From an uncultured Chloroflexia bacterium (GTDB taxonomy: Bacteria; Chloroflexota; Limnocylindria; Limnocylindrales; CSP1-4): a stretch of DNA of 64,000 nt. The DNA is taken from contig CAVVNQ010000008.1 in the NCBI GenBank assembly GCA_963749705.1, positions 64,001 to 128,000 on the forward strand, read 5' to 3'. Positions within the stretch are counted from its first letter, which is position 1. Each line of letters opens with the position of its first letter. The position numbers and the translations under genes are program-made. Shown one piece after another: positions 41,982 to 54,775 of this stretch. Under the pieces are notes generated by a model. It searched no databases. It saw only the letters and a program-made list of their open reading frames with translations, and had not been told where the DNA came from.

Positions 41982-42139
41982 GGTTCGCGCTCCTCCATCG
42001 GGCCCACCGCCGCCGGTCGGAACGGACGACGACGCCGCTGACGACGGCGTCGGGGGTGGGCTCCCGTTGGGTAGGCATGATACGGACCGCGCAGCGCACA
42101 GGAAAGAACGGCGTCGTTCGTACCCGGTACGCTGCGATC

Positions 42140-43438
42140 GTGGCGCGCCCCCTGCTCGCGGTGATCCTCGGCACCTTCACCCTCCGCCTGGCAACCGGGC
42201 TGACGGGTGGGATGCTCGTGTTCTACCTCGCGAACCTGACCGACTACGGCGGCACGAGGGTCGATGCCATCGTGGTCGGGGCGCTGGGTGCGCTGTTCTA
42301 CGTGAGCGAGCTGACCGGTTCGCCGCTGTTCGGCATCCTGTCCGACCGGACGGGCCATCGCCGGATCATGCAGCTTGGCCCGGTGTTCGGCGCGATCGCG
42401 GTCGTGGTCACGGCGCTGACGGTCAACCTGCCGCTGATCGGCGGCACCCGGATCCTCGAGGGCATGGCGACCGCCTCATCGGTGCCCTCGATCCTGGGCT
42501 TCATCGCCTTTGCGACCGCGGGCAACGAGCTGCTCCGCGGGCGAGCGGTCGCGAGGTTCGAGGCGGCGACGCTGGCCGGGCTGCTGTGCGGGTTCATCGT
42601 CGCGGGCCCGCTGTTCAAGGTGCTGGGGCCGGAGGCATTCCTGGTCAACGCGGTCGTGTACGGCGTCTCGCTGGCGATCTACCGGTTCGGCGTGCCGGCC
42701 ACGGCGGAGCCGCTCCCGACGGCGACGCTCGTGCGCGGTGAGCGATTGCGCCGGTACCTCCGCATCCTCCGCGGCAGCCACGTATGGCTCCTCGCTCCGA
42801 CCTGGATCGCGGTCAACGCCACGCTCGGACTGTTCACCAGCCAGACCCTGTTCCAGCTCGTCCGCGCACCGGATCCGCGGTTCGCCGCCCAGCAGCTGAT
42901 GGGCGGCTTCGACGAGCTGTCAGTCAGCGCGGGGCTGGCCGTCGGCGCGGTCCTGTTCTTCGCCGGGCTGCTCTACTGGGGCGGGAAGTTCCGGACGCTG
43001 CGCCGGACGACGATCATCAGGTACGGCATCGGCGGCGGCGGCGTGATGATCGTTGCCGGCATCCTGTTCAACCATGCCGCCGGCGCCCCGCTGCCGATCG
43101 ATGCGGTGCTCGCGGTCGCCGGCGCGGGCGGCCTGTTCGTGCTCGCCGGCGCCACGCCCGCGGCGATCGGCCTGCTGGCCGACATCACCGAGGCGTACCC
43201 CGACGACCGCGGCGCGATCATGGGGCTCTATTCGGTGTTTCTCGGGCTCGGCCAGATCATCGGCAGCCTGATCGGCGGCACCGCCGCCGAGTTCGCCGGG
43301 CTCGATGGGATCTTCATGGCATCCCTGCTGCTGCTCGCGATCGCGCTCCTGCCGCTGTCGCATCTCCGACGATACGAGCACCAGGTCAGCGGCCCCGATG
43401 CAGCGGCGGACGAGCCCAGCGTGAGCCTGCATGCCTGA
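42140..43438 (+). CDS. MFS transporter
   Basis: GILSDRTGHR motif A, about 12 hydrophobic segments; GTG start 6 nt after TACGCT. Confidence 0.88.
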   Translation: MARPLLAVILGTFTLRLATGLTGGMLVFYLANLTDYGGTRVDAIVVGALGALFYVSELTGSPLFGILSDRTGHRRIMQLGPVFGAIAVVVTALTVNLPLIGGTRILEGMATASSVPSILGFIAFATAGNELLRGRAVARFEAATLAGLLCGFIVAGPLFKVLGPEAFLVNAVVYGVSLAIYRFGVPATAEPLPTATLVRGERLRRYLRILRGSHVWLLAPTWIAVNATLGLFTSQTLFQLVRAPDPRFAAQQLMGGFDELSVSAGLAVGAVLFFAGLLYWGGKFRTLRRTTIIRYGIGGGGVMIVAGILFNHAAGAPLPIDAVLAVAGAGGLFVLAGATPAAIGLLADITEAYPDDRGAIMGLYSVFLGLGQIIGSLIGGTAAEFAGLDGIFMASLLLLAIALLPLSHLRRYEHQVSGPDAAADEPSVSLHA

Positions 43439-45178: not shown

Positions 45179-45451
45179 GTGACCTCGAACGTCGGCCAGA
45201 ACTATCCGTACACCAGCGAGACCGAGGCGGAGCGCGCCGCCCGCATCGCGACCCTGATCGCCGACCGCGAAGGGCTCGCCGGCAAGCTGCAGGCCGAGAC
45301 CACGCCGCTCGACGCGAACGAACGCTGGTGGGTCTGGAAGTGCCCCACGACGGGCTGCCCCGGGCTGCTCCACGCCGCCGGCTACGCGATCGAGAAGCAT
45401 GCCGTGTACGTCGTCTGCGACGGGACCTGCGCGAAGACGTTCCTCCGCTAG
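45179..45451 (+). CDS. Small putative zinc-binding protein (90 aa)
   Basis: GGAGGGG RBS before the GTG; CPTTGC...H...CDGTC; appears in the ORF track only as the tail of a spurious long ORF. Confidence 0.7.
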   Translation: MTSNVGQNYPYTSETEAERAARIATLIADREGLAGKLQAETTPLDANERWWVWKCPTTGCPGLLHAAGYAIEKHAVYVVCDGTCAKTFLR

Positions 45452-45464
45452 CCGGGCGCGCGCC

Positions 45465-46295
45465 GTGACCCCGGCGGTCGCCGCACCCGATCTCCGCGCC
45501 GCGCGACGGCAGCTCGTGCTCGACACCGCCGGGATCGCCGTGTCCGTCATCGGGTTCGGGCTGGTGTTCGGCCTGGCGGCCCGCAACGCGGGGTACTCCC
45601 CGCTCGAGGCGAGCGCGATGAGCGTGTTCGTGTTCGCCGGCGCGGCGCAGTTCACCGCGGTCGGCTACGTCGCCGCCGGCCTGCCGTGGGCACCGATCGT
45701 GGTCCTGACGTTCCTGCTCAACGCGCGCCACCTGCTGTACAGCGCGTCGCTCGCGCCGCGCCTGCGCGACGTGCCGTTTGCCCAGCGGGCGGTCATGTCG
45801 CACGTCCTGACCGACGAGGCGTTCGCGCTCGCCGCGGCGCACTTCCACCGGCTGGGTCGGGTCGACATCGGCGGCTACTGGATCGGTGCGGTCGCCGGGG
45901 TGTTCATCCCGTGGAACCTGGCCACGATCGCCGGCGGGCTGCTGGGCGGTGCGATCCCCGACCCGACGGCGCTCGGTCTCGATGTCGTGTTCCCGGCCGC
46001 GATGGCCGGCCTCGCCGTGGGGCTGGTCACCGGCCGGCGCGAGCTGGTCGCCGCCGGAGCGGGGGCATCGATCGGCGTCGCCCTGTCGCTGGCGTTCGGG
46101 TCCGCCGCCGGCATCCTCGCAGGCGGGCTGATCGGGCCGCTTATCGGCATGGCCGTCCCCGCCGGCGGTTCCGGGACGTCGCCGGACTCCGACGTGACCG
46201 GCCGGGCGGTGGACCTCGAGGGCGCGTTCGCCGACGTGGCCGCGCTGCCGGCCGACGGCGGGACATCGGCCCCCGCCGCCGGAGCCCCGCGTTGA
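45465..46295 (+). CDS. azlC: AzlC family branched-chain amino acid exporter
   Basis: SVFVFAGAAQF, LNARHLLYS, LTDEAFA. Confidence 0.88.
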   Translation: MTPAVAAPDLRAARRQLVLDTAGIAVSVIGFGLVFGLAARNAGYSPLEASAMSVFVFAGAAQFTAVGYVAAGLPWAPIVVLTFLLNARHLLYSASLAPRLRDVPFAQRAVMSHVLTDEAFALAAAHFHRLGRVDIGGYWIGAVAGVFIPWNLATIAGGLLGGAIPDPTALGLDVVFPAAMAGLAVGLVTGRRELVAAGAGASIGVALSLAFGSAAGILAGGLIGPLIGMAVPAGGSGTSPDSDVTGRAVDLEGAFADVAALPADGGTSAPAAGAPR

Positions 46296-46648: not shown

Positions 46649-47887
46649 CTACCGCCCGCTCGCCGCCACCCGGGCGAGACGCTCCGCGCGCCAGGCGCGG
46701 ACCTCGGGATCCCGGCCGATCGCGGCGATCAGCCCGGCGAGGAGCGTCGTCCGGGGCACGATCGAATCGACCTCGAGGTACTCGCCGGGAGCATGGTCAA
46801 GCCCTCCGATCGGTCCCAGCCCGTCGAGCGTCGGGACGCCCATGCCGGCCGTCGTGTTCGCGTCCGATGCACCGCCGGTCGCGGCATCGTGGACCTCGAA
46901 GCCCAGCGCTCGGGCGAGCGCCGTGACCTGCCCGACCAGGTGCCCGGACCGCTCGAGCTTCTCCATCGGCCAGTGGCGGCCGGTCTCGTCCACGACCACC
47001 GACACGTCGGGGACGACCTTCGGCTCGGCGACCGCCCGGATGGCCGCCTCGGCCTCGACCAGGGCGTCGCGGGTGACGGCCCGCACGTCCACCTCGAGCG
47101 AGCACCGCTCGGGGACGACGTTGGGCCGGGTGCCGCCCGCGATCACGCCGACATTGATCGTCACGCCCGGCCAGCGGCCGTTGAGCGCCTGGAGGTCGGT
47201 GACGATGCGGGCCGCCTCGAGGATGGCGCTGCGCCCTTTCTCCGGCTCGATGCCCGCGTGGGCGGCACGGCCAACGACCGTGATGGCCAACCCCAGATTG
47301 CCCTTGCGCGATGAGACGATGTCGCCGTTGGCCCGCGCGCATTCCAGCACCAGGCAGGCGTCGACGCCCTCGGCCAGCCGCCGGATGTGCGGGGACGACG
47401 CGGGCGAGCCGATCTCCTCGTCCGGGTTGGCGACGAACACGAGCCGCGCCAGCGGGAGCCCGCCCGACGCCTCGCGCAGCGCCGCGATGGCGTACAGGCC
47501 GGCGAGCAGGCCGCTCTTCATGTCGGTGACGCCGGGGCCGGTCGCGATGCCGTCCTCGATCCGGAACGGGCGCGCTGCCACCGTTCCCGGGTCGAACACG
47601 GTATCCAGGTGGCCGATGCACAGCAGCTCGGGACCGTCCGGGTCGTCACCCTCGATGACCGCGATCAGCGTGTCACCCAGGCCGTCGTCGTTGGGGTGCG
47701 CGGCCACCTCGGCGCCGAGCGTCCGGAGTCGCGCCGCCGTCCAGCGCCCGACCTCGTCCACGCCCGCCCTGGTGTAGCTGCCGCAGTCGATGTTGACGAG
47801 CCGCTCGAGATCCTCGAGGTAGGCGGGCAGCGCTGCCGCAACCTCGGAGCGCAGCCGCGAGAGCTCATCCTGCGCGACCGGTGTCAT
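46649..47887 (-). CDS. M20 family metallopeptidase (carboxypeptidase G2/ArgE-like)
   Basis: GHLDTV, GPGVTDMKSG, DEEIG, LE, GGASDA, DH metal/catalytic motifs. Confidence 0.9.
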   Translation of the reverse strand: MTPVAQDELSRLRSEVAAALPAYLEDLERLVNIDCGSYTRAGVDEVGRWTAARLRTLGAEVAAHPNDDGLGDTLIAVIEGDDPDGPELLCIGHLDTVFDPGTVAARPFRIEDGIATGPGVTDMKSGLLAGLYAIAALREASGGLPLARLVFVANPDEEIGSPASSPHIRRLAEGVDACLVLECARANGDIVSSRKGNLGLAITVVGRAAHAGIEPEKGRSAILEAARIVTDLQALNGRWPGVTINVGVIAGGTRPNVVPERCSLEVDVRAVTRDALVEAEAAIRAVAEPKVVPDVSVVVDETGRHWPMEKLERSGHLVGQVTALARALGFEVHDAATGGASDANTTAGMGVPTLDGLGPIGGLDHAPGEYLEVDSIVPRTTLLAGLIAAIGRDPEVRAWRAERLARVAASGR

Positions 47888-48009
47888 CGGAGGGTTTCCA
47901 TTCGGCTGAGTCTACCCAGCCGCAGGTATCGGCCCCGCCATGAGCTTCCGTCCGGCCGTGCGCATCACCCGCCGCGGGGCGGCCCCGCTCGCGTATCCTC
48001 GCCGGACCG

Positions 48010-49770
48010 ATGCGCTTGATCGAGATCCGCCTGCTCGAGGGACCCAACGTCTACCGGCTGGTGCCGGTGGTCAAGGTCGAGGTCGCGATCGGGCGGGGCC
48101 GCGCGTGGCACGGGTCGCGAACCCCCGACGACGCCGCGCTCGTCCACCTCGGGCGAGCCGTGCCGGCGCGCGCCTGGCCGGACCCGATCGCCGATCTCGT
48201 CGCCTGGACACGGCGCCTCCGGACGGAGCACGGCGAGCACCGGGGGCCGGTCCACGTGCACCGGACCTCCGACCTCGATCGATGGATCGTGACCTGGCCA
48301 TGGGACGGCGCGGAGCGCGCCCGGGTCATCGCGGAGGCCGCGTTCGACCTCGCCTCGCGCTCGGTGTCCGCGAGTCGTCACGCCCACCTGACCGGGGCGC
48401 AGGCCCGCAACCTCGCCCGATGGACGGCCCGGATCGCCGGATCGGGCGCGACGCCGCCGGCCTGGATCCGCGACGGGGAGCGGCGGATGCCCGCGATCTC
48501 GGTCACGGGGACCAACGGCAAGTCCACCGTGACCCGCCTGATCACGCACATCCTGCTGCTGGCCGGCCGGCACGTCGGCACGACGACGTCCGATGGGATC
48601 CTGGTCGACGAACGGCTCGTCGACGCCGGCGACTGGACGGGGCCGGGCGGCGCGACCGCGGTCCTCCAGCGCGCCGACATCGACGTAGCGGTGCTCGAGA
48701 CCGCGCGGGGTGGCCTGGTGCTGCGCGGGCTGGGCTACGAGAGCAACGACGCCAGCGTGTTCACCAACGTGTCCTCGGACCACCTCGACCTCCAGGGCAT
48801 CCACACCCTGCCCGAGCTCGCCGAGCTCAAGGCGACCGTGTGCCGGGTGACGCGGACCGACGGTTGGACGGTCCTCAACGCGGACGATCCGATCGTCGCC
48901 GCCGTCGCGCGGCGAGTCCGCGCCCGGGTCGCCTACTTCTCGCTGGACCCGGACGGTTCCCGGGTGATGCGCCGGCATCTGGCGGCCGGCGGGCGCGGGT
49001 ACGGCCTGCGCGCGGGCCGGCTGGTCGAGCGGGAGGGTCCCGAGGAACGCGACATCCTCGAGGTTGCCGACCTCCCGGTCGCGCTCGGCGGCATGGCCCG
49101 CCACAACGTCGCGAACGCCCTCGCGGCCGCCGGCGGCGCGCGCGCGATGGGCGCCACGCTCGCGGAGGTCGGCGAAGGCCTGCGCGACTTCCGCCCGTCC
49201 GCGGAGCTGTCCCCGGGACGGCTCAACCTGTACCAGCTCGGCCAGCGCGTGGTGATCGTGGACTTTGCGCACAACGAGGCCGGCACGGAGGCGATCCTCG
49301 ACGTGGCGGCCGCCATCGCGGGTGGCGCCGCCGGCCGCACCTCGCCGATCACCGCGATCATCGGCACGGCCGGCGACCGGCCCGAGGAGACGTTCCGCGG
49401 GATCGGGCGGCTGGCCGCCGAGCGCGCGCAGCGGGTCGCGATCAAGGAGACCCTGAGCTACCTGCGCGGTCGCGAACGGGAGTCGGTCGTCGCGCTGCTG
49501 CGCGAGGGGATCGCGGCGGGCGGCGGTGATCCGGCGGCCGTTCCCGTGTACGAGACGGAGTCCTGCGCGCTCGAGGCCGAGCTCGCGGGCGCGGGTGCCG
49601 CAGCCGCGGGCGACGGGCGTCCGGGTGCGCCGCGGGTCGTGGTGCTGTTCTGCCACGAGCAGCGCGACGAGGTGTTCGCGCTGCTGAAACGCCTCGGGGC
49701 GCGGCAGGTGGACGCGGCCAGCGGGCTCCACGACATCTCGCCCCGGCTCCACGACTACCGCGCGCGGTGA
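48010..49770 (+). CDS. Cyanophycin-synthetase-like Mur ligase lacking the ATP-grasp domain
   Basis: N-terminus IRLLEGPNVY resembles CphA RVLRGPNYW; then GTNGKST, SDG, GDWTGP, ETARGG, TNVSSDHL, LNADDP, NVANALAA, PGRLN, DFAHN, GDR, IKE, LRGR, all collinear with the CphA M domain. Confidence 0.85.
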   Translation: MRLIEIRLLEGPNVYRLVPVVKVEVAIGRGRAWHGSRTPDDAALVHLGRAVPARAWPDPIADLVAWTRRLRTEHGEHRGPVHVHRTSDLDRWIVTWPWDGAERARVIAEAAFDLASRSVSASRHAHLTGAQARNLARWTARIAGSGATPPAWIRDGERRMPAISVTGTNGKSTVTRLITHILLLAGRHVGTTTSDGILVDERLVDAGDWTGPGGATAVLQRADIDVAVLETARGGLVLRGLGYESNDASVFTNVSSDHLDLQGIHTLPELAELKATVCRVTRTDGWTVLNADDPIVAAVARRVRARVAYFSLDPDGSRVMRRHLAAGGRGYGLRAGRLVEREGPEERDILEVADLPVALGGMARHNVANALAAAGGARAMGATLAEVGEGLRDFRPSAELSPGRLNLYQLGQRVVIVDFAHNEAGTEAILDVAAAIAGGAAGRTSPITAIIGTAGDRPEETFRGIGRLAAERAQRVAIKETLSYLRGRERESVVALLREGIAAGGGDPAAVPVYETESCALEAELAGAGAAAAGDGRPGAPRVVVLFCHEQRDEVFALLKRLGARQVDAASGLHDISPRLHDYRAR

Positions 49771-49822
49771 TCGCCCTGCGGCGCCATCGCCATGACCAGG
49801 TGGCGCGCGACGGCCGCCCGAG

Positions 49823-52741
49823 TCAGCCCAGCGGCGCCTCCAGCTCGCCCGGATCGGCGAACGCGGTCGCGCCGTCCGAGCGACCGGCCAGCGCCATCGC
49901 CTCGCGGTAGACGCCCACCGCGTCGTCCGCACACACGACCACGAGGTCGCCCGGGGCTGCCCGACGGAGCGCGGCACGGACCGCGGCCGCCTCGTCGAGG
50001 ATCTTCTCCACCTTCATCGCCCGGGCCCGACCCTCGCCGCGAACGGCGCGGATCCCGTTGGCGACGTTGGTGGCGCTCACCCCGGGCTCGCGGCCGCGGA
50101 GGTGCTTGTCCTCGCGGATCAGGATCTCGTCGAACGCGGTCGCTGCGAGCGCGCCGTACTCGGCCTGGTCCTCGTCACGGCGATCGCCGGGGATCCCGAT
50201 CACCCCGATCGCGCGCCCCGTGCGCGCCGGCTGCGGGTGCGCCCCCGAGCCGAGGACGCCGGAGCGCGTCTGCGGCTCGATCATCATCCGATTGACGAAG
50301 TCCGCGAGCTGGCGCATCCCGTCGACGTTGTGGCAGTAGTCGATCACGACGTGGGTGCCCGCGACCTCGACCAGGTTGAGCCGGCCGGGCGCCTGGAAGA
50401 ACGACGTCGTGAACGTGCGCAGCCCCTGGCGGATGTCGTGGAGATGCGCGCCCGCGGCCCACGCGCCGGCCGCCGCGGCGAGCGCGTTGGCGACGTTCAT
50501 CCGGGCTCGGCCGCCGAAGGTGGCGGGCATCAGGTGCGTGTACAGCACGGGCATCTTGCGCGGCCCGTGCTTGAGGATCACCAGCTCGCCCTGCGGGGTG
50601 TCCTCGAGGCAGAAGGCCGCGTTGCCGCGTGACGTGTGCCCGTCCACCCGGTCGTACCCGTCCTCGCCCTTGACCTTGGACATCGAGAACAGGACCACCG
50701 CGCCGGCACAGTGACGGGCCATCCGGTAGACAAGCGGGTCATCGGCGTTGAGCACGGCCGATCCGGAGCGCGGGACCGCTTCCACGATCACGCCCTTGAC
50801 GTTGGCGAGCTGGCCGATCGTCTCGATGCCGCCCAGGCCCAGGTGGTCGCCGGTGACGTTGGTCACGACCGCGACATCGTTGCGGTCGTAGCCCAGGCCC
50901 TCGCGCAGGATGCCGCCGCGGGCGACCTCGAACACCGCGGTGTCGACGGTCGGGTTCTGGAGCACCATCTGCGCGGACCGGGGACCCGACATGTCGCCGC
51001 GCTTCATCAGCCGGCCGTCGATGACGATGCCGTCGGTCGAGGTCATCCCCACCCGCCGGCCCATCAGCTTGAGGATGTGGGCGACCATCCGGACGGTCGT
51101 GGTCTTGCCGTTGGTGCCGGTGACGGCGAGGATCGGGATCCGGGCCGGCGTGCCGGGCGGGAACAGCATGTCGATGACCGGCTTGGCGACGTACTGCGGC
51201 TCGCCCTCGGTCGGATGGGTGTGCATCCGGAACCCGGGCGCCGCGTTGACCTCGACGATGCCGCCGCCCGTCTCGCGGACCGGGGTCTCGATGTCGGGGC
51301 AGATGAAGTCGATGCCGGCGATGTCGAGCCCGACCATCCGGGCGGCGGTCTCGGCGATCTCGACGTTGTCCGGGTGCGCCTCCGCGGTGCGATCGATCGA
51401 GGTGCCGCCGGTCGACATGTTGCCGGTCAGCGCGAGCTTGACGAAGGTGCCCGGCCCGGGAACGCTGTCCGGGCTGAGCTCCTGGCTCGCGAGCAGCGCC
51501 TCGGCCGCCTCGTCGAGCCTGATCCGGGTCAGCACCTTCTCGTGGCCGATCCCCCGGCGCGGGTCCGCGTTCGTGGCATCGACCAGCTCCCGGACCGTGC
51601 GCTCGCCATCGCCCGTGACGCTGGCCGGCACCCGCTCCGCGACCGCGGCGAGCCTGCCGTCGATGATCAGGCAGCGGTAGTCGTTGCCGGTGATGTAGCT
51701 CTCGACGATCACGTCCCCCGACCGGCTCTGGGCCAGCGCGACCCGGAACGCGGCCCGAACCGAGTCCTCGTCCCGCAGGTCGAGCACGACGCCCCGGCCG
51801 TGGTTGCCGTCGAGCGGCTTGAGCACGCACGGGTAGCCAAGGCGCCGGGCCGCGGCCGCCGCCGCGTCCTCGGTGTCGACGACCTCCGACCGGGGTACCG
51901 GCAGGCCCGCCGAATCGAGCAGCCGGTTGGTCAGCTTCTTGTCCGAGGCGATGTCCACCGCGATGCCGCCGGTGCGCGAGGTCATCGTCGCCCGGATCCG
52001 CTCCTGGTGGACGCCCTGGCCCAGCTGGACGAGGCTGTACCGGTCAAGCCGGATGTACGGGATGTCGCGGCTGGCGGCCTCGTCGATCAGCGCCTGCGTC
52101 GAGGGCCCGAAGGCGAGCCGCTCGGCAAGCCGGATGAGGTCCTCGAGCCGCGCCTGGAAATCGAACGCGTGCTCCGGGTCGTCCGGCGCGACGAGGTGGT
52201 TGACGAGGTCGACGGCCATCTTGCCGGCCTCGATCCCGACCTGCTCCTCGCGATACTCGAAGATGACGTTGTACCGGCCGTACTCGCCGGTGCCGCGCGT
52301 CTTGCCGTGACGGACGTCAGTGCCGGCCAGGTTCTGGAGCTCGAGCGCGACGTGCTCCGCCACGTGACCGACCCAGGTGCCGTCGCGCAGCCGGGTGATG
52401 AACCCGCCGCGGCGCCCGAGCGAGCACGCGTGGTCCTCGAGCGACGGCAGCAGGCCGACCAGCCCGTCCACGAACCCCGGGATCCGGTTGCTCGGATGCT
52501 CCTCGAGCACGCCCAGGTCCACGACCTGGCGGATGACCGGCTCGCGCGCCCAGTAGTTGGGCCCGCGAAGGACGCGGGTCTCGATCGTGCGCAGGGTCGG
52601 CCGGGGGCCCGTGGCCGTCTTGCCGGTGGCGCGCCGGCGGGCCCTGGAGGGCGCCGCGCCGCGTCCGGGTGCGCCGTCGGCTGCCTTGCCCGTGGAGGCC
52701 CGGCTGGCGCGCTTCCGGGGAGCGGGTTCCGTCTGCGCCAC
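49823..52741 (-). CDS. cphA: Cyanophycin synthetase (CphA1-type)
   Basis: GPNYW, C...HVAEH N-domain motif, GPST, KPLDGNHGRG, DYR, NMSTGG, EVNAAPGFRMH, GTNGKTT, DYCHN; GAGGAGG RBS before GTG 52741. Confidence 0.95.
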   Translation of the reverse strand: MAQTEPAPRKRASRASTGKAADGAPGRGAAPSRARRRATGKTATGPRPTLRTIETRVLRGPNYWAREPVIRQVVDLGVLEEHPSNRIPGFVDGLVGLLPSLEDHACSLGRRGGFITRLRDGTWVGHVAEHVALELQNLAGTDVRHGKTRGTGEYGRYNVIFEYREEQVGIEAGKMAVDLVNHLVAPDDPEHAFDFQARLEDLIRLAERLAFGPSTQALIDEAASRDIPYIRLDRYSLVQLGQGVHQERIRATMTSRTGGIAVDIASDKKLTNRLLDSAGLPVPRSEVVDTEDAAAAAARRLGYPCVLKPLDGNHGRGVVLDLRDEDSVRAAFRVALAQSRSGDVIVESYITGNDYRCLIIDGRLAAVAERVPASVTGDGERTVRELVDATNADPRRGIGHEKVLTRIRLDEAAEALLASQELSPDSVPGPGTFVKLALTGNMSTGGTSIDRTAEAHPDNVEIAETAARMVGLDIAGIDFICPDIETPVRETGGGIVEVNAAPGFRMHTHPTEGEPQYVAKPVIDMLFPPGTPARIPILAVTGTNGKTTTVRMVAHILKLMGRRVGMTSTDGIVIDGRLMKRGDMSGPRSAQMVLQNPTVDTAVFEVARGGILREGLGYDRNDVAVVTNVTGDHLGLGGIETIGQLANVKGVIVEAVPRSGSAVLNADDPLVYRMARHCAGAVVLFSMSKVKGEDGYDRVDGHTSRGNAAFCLEDTPQGELVILKHGPRKMPVLYTHLMPATFGGRARMNVANALAAAAGAWAAGAHLHDIRQGLRTFTTSFFQAPGRLNLVEVAGTHVVIDYCHNVDGMRQLADFVNRMMIEPQTRSGVLGSGAHPQPARTGRAIGVIGIPGDRRDEDQAEYGALAATAFDEILIREDKHLRGREPGVSATNVANGIRAVRGEGRARAMKVEKILDEAAAVRAALRRAAPGDLVVVCADDAVGVYREAMALAGRSDGATAFADPGELEAPLG

Positions 52742-52823
52742 GTGAGCCTCCTCGCTGCCGTTGGGACGCCGAGTGTACGCGCGGCGGTCTGCGTGGCGCA
52801 CGATGCCCCACGCACGGCGCGGA

Positions 52824-53657
52824 TCAGCTGGACGCGACCTCGCCCTGGATCGCGTGCAGGTGCGGCGCCGTGACCCGCATCCGGCGACGGAGGTCGAACC
52901 GGTAGCCGGCGGGCAGCGAGTGGAGCACGACGTTGCTGATCATCAGCGGCCGGTGGCCGCGGATCTCCCAGGCGTCGGTCTCCGAGGCGGCGCCGTCGAC
53001 GACCGTGATCGAGCCGCGGCCGATGACCTCCATCACCTGGTCGGGGCCGACGATGCCCGCGGTGTCCTCGTCCACGCCGAGGCCGAGCAGGCCGGGGTTC
53101 TGGGCGATCAGGCTGAGCAGCCGCCCGAGCCGGTTCCGCTGCTGGAAGTGCTGGTCCACGATCACGCCCGGGAGCAGGCCCAGGCCCGCGGCGATCTGCG
53201 CCATCCGGTGCTTGGGGGTGGCGCCCGACCCGCCGAACGCGATCATGTGGCTGGACACGGCCGAGGCACCGGCGGACGTCCCCGCGACCACCGCCCCCGC
53301 CTCGAACCGGGCGGTGATCGCTTCGGCGAGGCGGGTGCCGCCGATCATCGATGACAGGCGGAGCTGGTTGCCGCCGGTCAGGAACACGCCGGTGGCGTCG
53401 TGGACGATGCCCGCCGCGTGCTCGTCGTTTGCCTGCGCTCGGGTCACCGCGTGGAGCGGTCGGACGGCGGCGGCGCCGAGCTCCATGAACACGTCGCGGT
53501 ACAGCCGGCCGGCCTCGGGCCCCATGGACGATGCGCTGCTGATGACGGTGATCCGGGCATCGGGTCCGCCGGCGAGCGCGATGAACCGGCCGAGGATGAC
53601 CCGGTCCCGGATCTTGTCCTCCGCGCCGCCGATGACGATGACCGTTCCCTGCGCCAT
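52824..53657 (-). CDS. cphB: Cyanophycinase
   Basis: IGGAEDK, TGGNQ, GTSAG (Ser), DQHF..RNR.GRL (His), GVDEDT (Glu). Confidence 0.93.
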   Translation of the reverse strand: MAQGTVIVIGGAEDKIRDRVILGRFIALAGGPDARITVISSASSMGPEAGRLYRDVFMELGAAAVRPLHAVTRAQANDEHAAGIVHDATGVFLTGGNQLRLSSMIGGTRLAEAITARFEAGAVVAGTSAGASAVSSHMIAFGGSGATPKHRMAQIAAGLGLLPGVIVDQHFQQRNRLGRLLSLIAQNPGLLGLGVDEDTAGIVGPDQVMEVIGRGSITVVDGAASETDAWEIRGHRPLMISNVVLHSLPAGYRFDLRRRMRVTAPHLHAIQGEVASS

Positions 53658-53776
53658 GGTGGGCGGAGTATATCGGCGTCGGTGACGACGGAACCGCAGG
53701 CAGCACGACCGGCCATGGGTCGCGGCCGACGCGGGGCATGGTCAAGCGGCGCCCGGGCGCGCGAGAATGGCGCCTG

Positions 53777-54775
53777 ATGGACGCGACCGCCGCCCTCCGA
53801 CGACCCTCCCGCCGCCGCGCGGGCGTGATCCGTCGCGCGCTGCGGCGCGAGGCGACGCGGCTCCGTGACCCGCACCGGATCGCGGCGATGGCGATCCTGA
53901 TCATCGTGTTCGCGCTCGCGATCGCGGGCATGACCGCACGGGGCGATGTCGCGGGCGCCGACGCCCAGGCCTACTGGGCGGCGGTCAGGATCTGGATCGA
54001 GGGTGGCAACCCCTACCACCCGACCGGCCCGTTCCTCCCCTACGTCTATGCGCCGTGGATGCTGCCGCTGTTCACGCCATGGGCGCTGCTCCCGTGGGAG
54101 GTGGCCTGGTTCGCCTGGCGCGGCGCCACGATCCTGCTGCTGCTGTGGTCGATCCGGTGGGCGTATGCGAGGCGGCCGCTGCCGGCGGCGATCCTCGTCG
54201 GGCTGCTGGCGTTCCCGTTCGCCGCGAACCTGGACACCGGCAACATCAACCTGCTGCTCGCGCTCGGCCTGTTCGGCGCGCAGTTCACCGGGCCGCGGCT
54301 GGGCGGGTTCCTGTGGGGCCTTGCGACCTGGATGAAATGGGTCCCGGCGCCGCTGTGGCTGGTGCTGCCGCCACGGTCCCGGGCATGGGGCCTCGTGTTC
54401 CTCGCCCTGTCCGGGCTGCTGTCGCTGGCCATGCTGCCGCTGACGATCATCCAGCTCCAGGCCCTGTTCGGGTTCGGGCAGCGGCCGTTCCGGGCCGACT
54501 ACCTCGTGTTCATCTGGTCGGCGGTGCCGTGGTGGTGGCGGCACGCGGATCCGTTCGCGTTCCTGCGCGCCTCCTCGTGGCGCGACATGACCCGGTACGG
54601 GGCGAGCGTGGCGCGCTCGTGGGCGGGCGAGCTGCGCGCGGACCCGGTCGGATCGCTCGGGCGCGCGCGGGCCTGGCTCCACGACTGGGGCGGCCGGTTC
54701 CTGGGGCTGGAAGCGGCCGGCCAGCGTGCGCAGCGACCGGCGTCCGAGCCCGCGATCGCCGAGATCGGCGACTGA
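53777..54775 (+). CDS. GT-C fold membrane glycosyltransferase (GT87-like)
   Basis: DAQAYW, NPY, YVYAP, GNINLL, WMKWVP motifs; multiple TM segments. Confidence 0.75.
   Translation: MDATAALRRPSRRRAGVIRRALRREATRLRDPHRIAAMAILIIVFALAIAGMTARGDVAGADAQAYWAAVRIWIEGGNPYHPTGPFLPYVYAPWMLPLFTPWALLPWEVAWFAWRGATILLLLWSIRWAYARRPLPAAILVGLLAFPFAANLDTGNINLLLALGLFGAQFTGPRLGGFLWGLATWMKWVPAPLWLVLPPRSRAWGLVFLALSGLLSLAMLPLTIIQLQALFGFGQRPFRADYLVFIWSAVPWWWRHADPFAFLRASSWRDMTRYGASVARSWAGELRADPVGSLGRARAWLHDWGGRFLGLEAAGQRAQRPASEPAIAEIGD

Follow-up and report, generated by a model that had tools for sequence, protein, structure and literature searches.

The synthesis of cyanophycin is attributed to one enzyme, CphA1, or to CphA2 working from recycled dipeptides, and in CphA1 the backbone is extended with Asp by the ATP-grasp (G) domain. 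The locus described here raises the question of what a second CphA-like protein that lacks this domain does beside a complete set of cyanophycin genes. It lies in a 64-kb window of contig CAVVNQ010000008.1 (GenBank assembly GCA_963749705.1, from an uncultured Chloroflexia bacterium), and all coordinates below are positions within this window. The gene in question, referred to as the short gene, occupies 48010-49770 on the forward strand and encodes P0001, a 586 amino acid (aa) CphA paralog in which an N-terminal (N) domain is followed directly by a Mur-ligase-type (M) domain. We propose, with a confidence just short of even, that P0001 is an active stand-alone ATP-dependent ligase linked to cyanophycin which, judging from sequence, would differ from CphA1 in its acceptor or in its incoming amino acid.

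The reading frame of the short gene is intact and stop-free over its whole length, it has close relatives of similar length, and its GC content (0.94 at third compared with 0.54 at second codon positions) follows the pattern of the neighbouring real genes in this genome of 73 % GC. Pfam assigns P0001 to the Mur-ligase superfamily with two matches above gathering score, Mur_ligase_M (PF08245) over residues 165-375 (48502-49134, + strand; 77.4 bits, cut-off 24, E 1.9e-21) and Mur_ligase_C (PF02875) over residues 403-518 (49216-49563, + strand; 30.9 bits, cut-off 28.4, E 5.5e-07). The first of these is the core of the M domain and contains GTNGKST, E230 and D257-H258, and the second is its lid with DFAHN, GDR and Tyr-LRGR. 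No ATP-grasp family was matched in P0001 by Pfam compared with eight in the neighbouring CphA1, and a motif search of P0001 for KPxDGNHGRG, EVNAAPG and the peptidase site Cx19HxxEH returned none of the three. The preliminary description, made from the letters of the window alone, had read the protein as a CphA N domain joined to an intact M domain without ATP-grasp, and this reading is borne out by Pfam, by the motif search and by superposition of the P0001 model on CphA1. The motifs it quoted are all found where it placed them, at residues 6 (IRLLEGPNVY), 167 (GTNGKST), 208 (DWTGPGGA), 230 (ETARGG), 236 (LVLRG), 252 (TNVSSDHL), 418 (DFAHN), 455 (GDR) and 485 (LRGR), and among those it listed as missing KPxDGNHGRG, EVNAAPG and C...HxxEH are indeed absent while DYR does occur, as a chance tripeptide at residue 582 in the C-terminal tail. 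The corresponding motifs of the neighbouring CphA1 are RVLRGPNYW, DMSGPRSA, ILREG, KPLDGNHGRG, EVNAAPG and Cx19HxxEH. Because the whole ATP-grasp G domain (~320 residues) is absent, P0001 would not be able to extend the cyanophycin backbone.

The N domain, without Cx19HxxEH, extends to residue 150 (48010-48459, + strand) and gives way directly to the M domain at about residue 156. No Pfam family, PF18921 included, was matched within residues 1-150. Similarity to the N domain of the neighbouring CphA1 was detected by BLASTP (E 0.001, 24 % identity), and a profile of 24 family N domains matched CphA1 N termini in three genomes (E 6.9e-6 to 3.3e-4). Homology of the N domain at the level of sequence rests on these weaker matches since hhalign, comparing the short-family alignment with the CphA1 alignment, reported the M domain alone. 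The predicted structures decide the matter. An AlphaFold model of full P0001 built with 40 family sequences reached a predicted local distance difference test score (pLDDT) of 88.7 and a predicted template modelling score (pTM) of 0.90, and superposed on CphA1 7wae_A over 505 residues with a root-mean-square deviation of 2.6 Å and Z 39.0. As residues 1-563 of the model fall on residues 1-877 of the chain, the N and M domains are placed as they are in CphA1 with the G domain left out. Over the CphA1 structures Z was 39-42 with ~505 residues aligned, compared with ~23-25 for ordinary Mur ligases. When the N domain was modelled alone (pLDDT 83.6) and ranked against 48,161 chains without a Foldseek prefilter, CphA2 7ta5_A came first (Z 9.1, 123 residues aligned) and CphA1 7lgm_A second (Z 7.7), all remaining chains scoring 6.4 or less. 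By these models the N domain of P0001 is of CphA type and is packed against the M core.

The closest solved relatives of P0001 by sequence are likewise CphA1 structures (7lg5, E 6.5e-71), and its M domain is 39 % identical to that of the neighbouring CphA1. The CphA1 model TIGR02068 matched residues 156-526 at model positions 475-836 with 370.6 bits, and P0001 is not classed as CphA1 since this score is below the family cut-off of 850 and the protein is without the defining domain. The MurE models TIGR01085/NF001126 gave 99.0 bits (cut-off 257.3) and 104.4 bits (cut-off 373), and a separate MurE-like gene (L003) is present on another contig of the same genome. The M domain thus groups with CphA rather than with MurC-F, as the preliminary description had supposed, on the evidence of 370.6 bits against 104.4 bits and of a MurE outgroup that is split off at 100/100 in the tree described below.

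Among known enzymes P0001 stands nearest to CphA1 and CphA2. With CphA1 (N-G-M; TIGR02068; structures 7LG5, 7LGQ, 7TXV, 7WAE, 7LGM and 7LGN) P0001 has in common the N fold, the M fold and their relative placement, the catalytic residues of the M domain and a gene neighbourhood with cphB. It differs in the missing G domain and Cx19HxxEH site, in altered charges in the groove and pocket, in a Tyr before LRGR and in an M domain that falls outside the CphA1 clade. CphA2 (7TA5) is also a reduced CphA paralog without the N-domain peptidase motif (PMC9262961), and the isolated N domain of P0001 finds its closest structural counterpart in that of CphA2. CphA2 retains an active G domain with a truncated and inactive M domain (PMC10273328), whereas P0001 has no G domain and a full-length M domain, so that the earlier view of P0001 as the mirror image of CphA2 holds. 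MurE, MurC-F and the pseudomurein ligases resemble P0001 in their three-part build, with a substrate-binding domain at the N terminus, a P-loop ATPase as the core and a lid at the C terminus, and in their acyl-phosphate ligase motifs, the LRGR region of P0001 aligning with the DNPR region of MurE. They differ in that the N-terminal domain of P0001 is CphA-type and not UDP-binding, and P0001 scored at most 104 bits with MurE models whose cut-offs are 257-1023. A published N+M form of CphA was not found in the cyanophycin and CphA literature searched, outside which supplements may hold tables, in keeping with the preliminary description which knew of no characterised example. The extract of a bioinformatic study of 2023 in Scientific Reports (PMC10206079) contains none of the terms 'truncated', 'M domain' and 'G domain', its matches to 'Mur' being the author name Murshudov, and the portion consulted of a pseudomurein pangenomics paper treats CphA as an ATP-grasp and Mur fusion only (PMC11915815).

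The short architecture is widely conserved. The best 120 database relatives of P0001 are 531-624 aa in length, many of them ~585 aa, with 68-97 % identity, and those given a name in their source are annotated as 'cyanophycin synthetase' or 'Mur ligase family protein' of Candidatus Limnocylindrales. In the genus 21 of the 24 other genomes contain the N domain of the short gene, and in the family to which the window belongs 96 of the 150 other genomes contain the gene itself. From a sample of 401 genomes of the phylum 15 matched at E ≤0.001. Twelve of these, including the genome of the window, matched at E ≤3e-27 and all belong to the family of the window; the remaining three matches (one in the unpublished G212) are weak and contain stops and were treated as noise. 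A search of 1.84 billion cluster representatives returned full-length relatives of 527-585 aa with 36-44 % identity from Kribbella, Terrabacter aerolatus, Nocardioides and other Actinomycetota, and from Thermomicrobiales and Sphaerobacteraceae. Conservation of the short family thus extends over Chloroflexota, Thermomicrobiota and Actinomycetota. Sixteen DNA sequencing runs matched the short gene, each with a word share of ≤0.16, and the four that were assembled gave short fragments. One independent short contig (run X2) spans 48420-48570 across the junction of the N and M domains.

Within the window the short gene converges on cphA1 (49823-52801, - strand), the two genes lying tail to tail with 52 bp between their stops. 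This cphA1 encodes a complete N-G-M protein with the Cx19HxxEH site (TIGR02068 1132 bits, cut-off 850; Cyanophycin_syn, eight ATP-grasp families and both Mur ligase domains in Pfam). Upstream of cphA1 and on the same strand is cphB (52824-53657, - strand), which encodes a cyanophycinase (Peptidase_S51; TIGR02069 255 bits, cut-off 126.6). The complete cphB-cphA pair that the preliminary description saw facing the short gene is confirmed by both TIGR models in this convergent orientation, and it is an M20 peptidase gene (46649-47887, - strand) that diverges from the start of the short gene. This neighbourhood is not confined to the window. We compared twelve loci (L025-L035 and L039) of the subclade that contains P0001 (clade A, below) from Chloroflexota, Thermomicrobiota and Actinomycetota, and found CphA1 within the examined flanks of 9 and cphB in 6. 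Of the three loci without CphA1 one is a contig of 2.5 kb, one stops 28 bases past the gene and one is from Sphaerobacteraceae.

Across whole genomes the association is closer still. In the family of the window (151 genomes) the N domain of the short gene is present in 97 genomes, the CphA1 G domain in 97 and both in 95, and in Actinomycetota (301 genomes) the corresponding figures are 32, 33 and 32, so that both genes are found in 95 of 99 family genomes and 32 of 33 Actinomycetota genomes that have either. The overlap was derived from two listed genome sets and checked against per-genus tallies; the counts are descriptive, made without a statistical test on related genomes that are not independent, and they include the unpublished G498 and G551 (family) and G654 (Actinomycetota), all with both genes, without which the overlaps are 93 and 31. 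At the level of genera each gene is present in 32 of the 49 in the family. The exceptions in the family are G005, G519 (81 % complete), G458 and G556 (68 % complete), and in Actinomycetota the exception is G860, whose CphA1 is more distant (55 % identity to the query). G005, which belongs to the genus of the window, retains a fragment of the short gene (residues 80-156; C24:181046-181276, L024) and has no CphA1 G domain, and for this reason it fits a joint loss of the two genes. The genomic association with cyanophycin genes, whose absence the preliminary description had named as a ground for refutation, was thus recovered by both synteny and co-occurrence, and the link of the short gene to the cyanophycin genes is strong.

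To place the short family we built a quick tree (LG+G4) of 118 M domains with two MurE sequences as outgroup and a careful tree (LG+C20) of 68 rows, the latter excluding eight short rows, one fused frame and many near-duplicates. In the quick tree 56 short proteins and one read-through frame form a single clade with a Shimodaira-Hasegawa approximate likelihood ratio (SH-aLRT) support of 96 and two subclades. Clade A (35 rows) contains P0001 with members from Chloroflexota, Thermomicrobiota and Actinomycetota, and among the 22 rows of clade B are genes that follow cphA1 directly in Plesiocystis pacifica and Luteimonas lutimaris. In the careful tree CphA1 is monophyletic (97/99), clade B is supported at 99/90 and clade A at 83/45, and the MurE outgroup is separated at 100/100. 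Here the deepest branch is clade A, and clade B groups with CphA1 as its sister at weak support (82/63), on a root that rests on two long outgroup branches. By these trees the short family is old and falls outside the crown of sampled CphA1s. The N+M form could be ancestral, with the ATP-grasp domain inserted later, or it could reflect an early deletion of the G domain. The CphA1s that accompany the short gene form their own clade with an SH-aLRT support of 100 in the quick tree and 100/99 in the careful tree.

Certain members of the trees and their relatives show departures from this simple picture. The clade-B genes lie immediately 3′ of cphA1 in Plesiocystis pacifica, Luteimonas lutimaris, a Steroidobacteraceae metagenome-assembled genome (MAG) and a Rubrivivax MAG, at 9413-11191 in L078, 9324-11294 in L087 and as frames from 6521 in L092 and from 9160 in L102. 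In L092 cphA1 and the clade-B gene share one read-through frame of 1530 codons. Clade-B proteins have a segment of the type LPxLxDDDxVSxGxG some 40 residues before the M domain, which by eye is like the IPxxRLxxxSLVQLGxG that starts the CphA1 G domain and, if the likeness is real, would be a remnant of a deleted G domain. Eight other short rows of the quick tree fall inside CphA1 clades and may represent fragments or separate events of G-domain loss. The same may be true of P0216, P0250, P0252 and P0243, N+M-like proteins of 532-599 aa that are nested in a Bacteroidota CphA1 clade apart from the main short family. P0216 has weak Pfam matches to Cyanophycin_syn and DUF4938 (PF16292). Among 10 proteins scanned for DUF4938 the short relative P0194 passed (102 bits) and P0216 was below the cut-off; P0001 had no match in its own Pfam scan. 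A search for PF16292 in 121 genomes of the order of G566 gave 0 matches, in a run that also missed the short protein of G566 itself and in which the controls gave no match. A second cphA-like frame beside cphA1 was seen in L079, L082, L083, L085, L089, L090, L095, L099 and L101, from Betaproteobacteria and some other Proteobacteria, upstream of cphA1 where coordinates show its position. Its M match ends at about profile position 241-247 of 365 (130 in Nitrosomonas europaea), which makes it a paralog with a truncated M domain.

The machinery of the ligase is retained throughout the short family. Residue statistics were taken over the M domains of 35 clade-A, 22 clade-B and 51 CphA1 sequences. 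The P-loop, D208, E230, R233, N253, D257-H258, K274 and N290 are common to all three groups, as are R404, D418, H421-N422, G455-D456-R457, R486 and R488, and the catalytic columns are invariant or nearly so across both short clades. In the alignment D257-H258 of P0001 is the counterpart of D585-H586 of SuCphA1, where D585A/H586A is the mutation that inactivates the M domain (PMC9262961). From its sequence the M domain of the short enzyme thus appears complete and catalytically competent. Conversely HxxEH is found in the N regions of none of the 35 clade-A and none of the 22 clade-B sequences compared with 44 of the 51 CphA1 sequences.

Differences from CphA1 cluster in the substrate region of the M domain. 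The residue that follows the invariant Gly-Asp (W209 of P0001) is varied in CphA1, with C, T, M and A the commonest, and is aromatic in 34 of 35 clade-A and 19 of 22 clade-B sequences. The Ser found at position 609 in 46 of 51 CphA1s is G214 in P0001, Gly in all 35 clade-A sequences and Gly (15) or Ala (7) in the 22 of clade B. Where 44 of 51 CphA1s have E, A or S, P0001 has R239, clade A has R or K (34/35) and clade B has R (22/22). P0001 R279 corresponds to SuCphA1 E607, a position that is E in 36 of 51 CphA1s, R or K in 27 of 35 clade-A sequences and R (7) or H (4) in part of the 22 clade-B sequences. S603 and E607 are the two M-domain side chains of SuCphA1 reported to contact bound cyanophycin (PMC9262961). 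Three charged residues of CphA1 are also affected: R875 (R in 42/51) is replaced most commonly by T, P, G or A in clade A and by S or T in clade B, D878 (D in 41/51) most commonly by V, A, T or I in clade A with D persisting as the commonest residue in clade B (9/22), and D898 (D in 45/51) most commonly by T, K, N or L in clade A and L, Q, M or V in clade B. Finally a Tyr is inserted before LRGR (Y484 of P0001) in 34 of 35 clade-A sequences, with Tyr (16), His (4) or Phe (2) in clade B, at a position that is a gap in 49 of 51 CphA1s. The preliminary description had noted from a single pair of proteins that the substrate side was unlike that of CphA1, and these family-wide statistics lend support to that view. 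By these alignments the groove and the amino-acid pocket have fewer acidic and more basic residues than those of CphA1.

In an alignment with two MurE sequences CphA1 D898 aligns with the D of the MurE DNPR motif and R902 with its R. In MurE structures the Asp of DNPR contacts the distal ammonium of the incoming diamino acid. If CphA1 is MurE-like in this respect D898 would help to hold the guanidinium of arginine, and its loss in the short family would therefore point to a different incoming residue, provided that this role does hold in CphA1. The partner CphA1s have lost no conserved CphA1 residue; six of them compared with 17 other CphA1s differ at five conserved positions and all of these differences are conservative. 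The short enzyme is therefore not compensating for a defective CphA1, and this explanation was ruled out.

From the observed and computed features of P0001, namely architecture, fold, catalytic residues, lineage, synteny and co-occurrence, we infer as follows that the protein binds polymer, which way its specificity has shifted and what reaction it would catalyse. The CphA N domain would occupy the place of substrate-binding domain 1 of Mur ligases, and together with the M core would form the groove that holds the polymer in CphA1. Between the N domain and the M core of CphA1 lies a cyanophycin analogue whose last residue is unmodified (PMC9427784), and the N domain of CphA1 acts as a loose anchor of the polymer (PMC9262961). 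The short enzyme would bind cyanophycin or an Asp-rich derivative, phosphorylate a carboxylate with ATP and attach an amino acid, adding no backbone residues and acting beside a complete CphA1 and CphB. The acceptor would be more anionic or poorer in arginine, or else the incoming amino acid would be non-basic. Given the more basic and less acidic groove and pocket, we infer that the short enzyme would not simply repeat the arginine addition of CphA1 at the chain end.

Several observations weigh against a polymer-directed ligase of altered specificity. The helices of the N domain are poorly conserved in sequence, and the N domain of CphA2 is mainly structural (PMC10273328). The roles assigned to D898 and D878 rest on the MurE alignment and on MurE structures rather than on a complex of CphA1 with arginine, and the charge pattern could mirror a different oligomeric or regulatory surface and not a substrate. 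No RNA run was listed among the sequencing runs matched to the short gene. Outside the family of the window the M20 neighbour is missing and the flanking genes are housekeeping types.

This M20 gene encodes a protein with Peptidase_M20 and M20_dimer matches whose closest solved relative is carboxypeptidase G2 (CPG2, 1cg2; E 8.3e-39). CPG2 hydrolyses the N-acyl linkage to an amino acid whose carboxylate is free, and the cyanophycin side chain is held by a bond of this type. In the family of the window 19 of 20 loci have the gene next to the short gene and in divergent orientation, as against none of the 10 loci from other lineages, where the flanks carry fabG/inhA-like reductases and a serB-like phosphatase and where in Actinomycetota the immediate neighbours are housekeeping types. 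Because it is absent from all 10 of these loci it is no general partner of the short gene, and it may belong to the cyanophycin module in the lineage of the window only. On the basis of its relatives the M20 enzyme could be a beta-Asp-Arg dipeptidase or an enzyme that releases side chains, and its position suggests a possible cycle of stripping and reloading in this family. A wider scheme built on these observations, which is possible but which we consider doubtful, is that of a two-ligase cyanophycin system in Actinomycetota and this Chloroflexota lineage, in which the second ligase would add a second side chain or reload arginine-stripped polyaspartate, with the M20 enzyme doing the stripping in the family of the window and with the N+M form possibly older than the insertion of the ATP-grasp domain.

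Among the alternatives the one that survives best, unlikely as we consider it to be, is that the short enzyme carries out the same chemistry as the CphA1 M domain, attaching arginine to free beta-carboxylates of Asp as a booster or in a repair role that re-arginylates the polymer, for example after stripping by M20. It would be served by the same catalytic residues, LRGR and GDR as CphA1, the more basic groove would suit an arginine-free polyaspartate acceptor, and the divergent CPG2-like gene in 19 of 20 family loci would supply the stripping step. The loss of the Asp aligned with that of MurE DNPR, together with the loss of D878 in clade A, argues however against an unchanged arginine pocket, and the short gene tracks CphA1 outside the family of the window where M20 is absent in 10 of 10 loci.

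It is less probable again, and in our view improbable, that P0001 acts on small molecules, ligating free aspartate with an amino acid and so making beta-Asp-X dipeptides as primers or as feedstock for polymerisation. CphA1 is thought to form beta-Asp-Arg very slowly at the start of synthesis (PMC9262961), so that a dedicated starter enzyme would be useful, and aspartate could be held by its free alpha-carboxylate on the additional Arg residues of the groove. The primer-generating Cx19HxxEH site is, however, present in the partner CphA1, and primers should not be limiting; such an enzyme would have no obvious need to retain a polymer-anchoring N domain in its CphA1 position, and a dipeptide polymerase of the CphA2 type was seen in none of the twelve clade-A loci.

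A purely structural or regulatory role, with P0001 as the partner of CphA1 in a hetero-oligomer and without essential catalysis, has only a small chance of being correct. CphA1 and CphA2 do oligomerise through their G and M domains (PMC10273328), and such a role would account for near-obligate co-occurrence with one CphA1 subfamily whose members form a well-supported clade. The M catalytic residues are invariant or nearly so across two deep clades, which is unexpected of a purely structural subunit, and the inactive M domain of CphA2 is by contrast truncated (PMC10273328). When residues 1-570 of P0001 and the M domain of CphA1 (551-965) were submitted to complex prediction, with separate alignments and without controls, the score was 0.00 and the mark 0.32, which speaks neither for nor against such an assembly.

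We regard it as very improbable that P0001 is a Mur-type ligase whose substrate has no connection with cyanophycin, for instance a carboxylate of the cell wall or of a cofactor, and that it has come to lie near cphA by chance or through shared regulation. The housekeeping genes that immediately flank it in Actinomycetota would fit such a role, but the presence and absence of the gene tracks CphA1 (95 of 99 family genomes and 32 of 33 Actinomycetota genomes with either gene), its N domain is CphA-type and the MurE models score far below their cut-offs (104.4 against 373 bits). That the short gene is a misassembly or a decaying cphA copy stripped of its G domain, the first of which the preliminary description had named as a ground for refutation, is refuted by conservation and retains next to no probability, given an intact frame, 120 best relatives of 531-624 aa, conserved catalytic columns, its presence in 21 of 24 other genomes of the genus and 96 of 150 of the family and the X2 contig across the N-M junction.

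New here are the genome-wide co-occurrence counts, the position of the short family beyond the CphA1 crown, the specificity positions with altered charge, among them the counterpart of E607, and the lineage-restricted M20 partner. A second ligase with intact catalytic residues accompanies CphA1 in 32 of 33 Actinomycetota and 95 of 97 family genomes that bear CphA1, and the short family presents a natural split of the two half-reactions of CphA1. If the short enzyme acts on the polymer, the natural polymer of these soil lineages may depart from the textbook material in its composition or its turnover, and were the two-ligase scheme to be true the store could be charged and discharged without rebuilding its backbone. 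This bears on nitrogen storage in soil bacteria and on tailored cyanophycins, for which ligases for other side chains are sought. The family includes cultured hosts, among them Kribbella and Terrabacter aerolatus, which makes these proposals testable.

Some further features of the locus were recorded. A scan of 47700-50000 for promoters and terminators found none. If the GTG at 52801 is taken as its start, CphA1 would bear an Arg/Ala/Pro-rich extension of ~70 residues ahead of the conserved N domain, and the partner CphA1s of Actinomycetota likewise have long open frames upstream of their N domains. Other genes near the cluster encode an MFS transporter (42056-43438, + strand), an AzlC-family branched-chain amino-acid permease component (45399-46295, + strand) and a GT87 glycosyltransferase (53738-54775, + strand).

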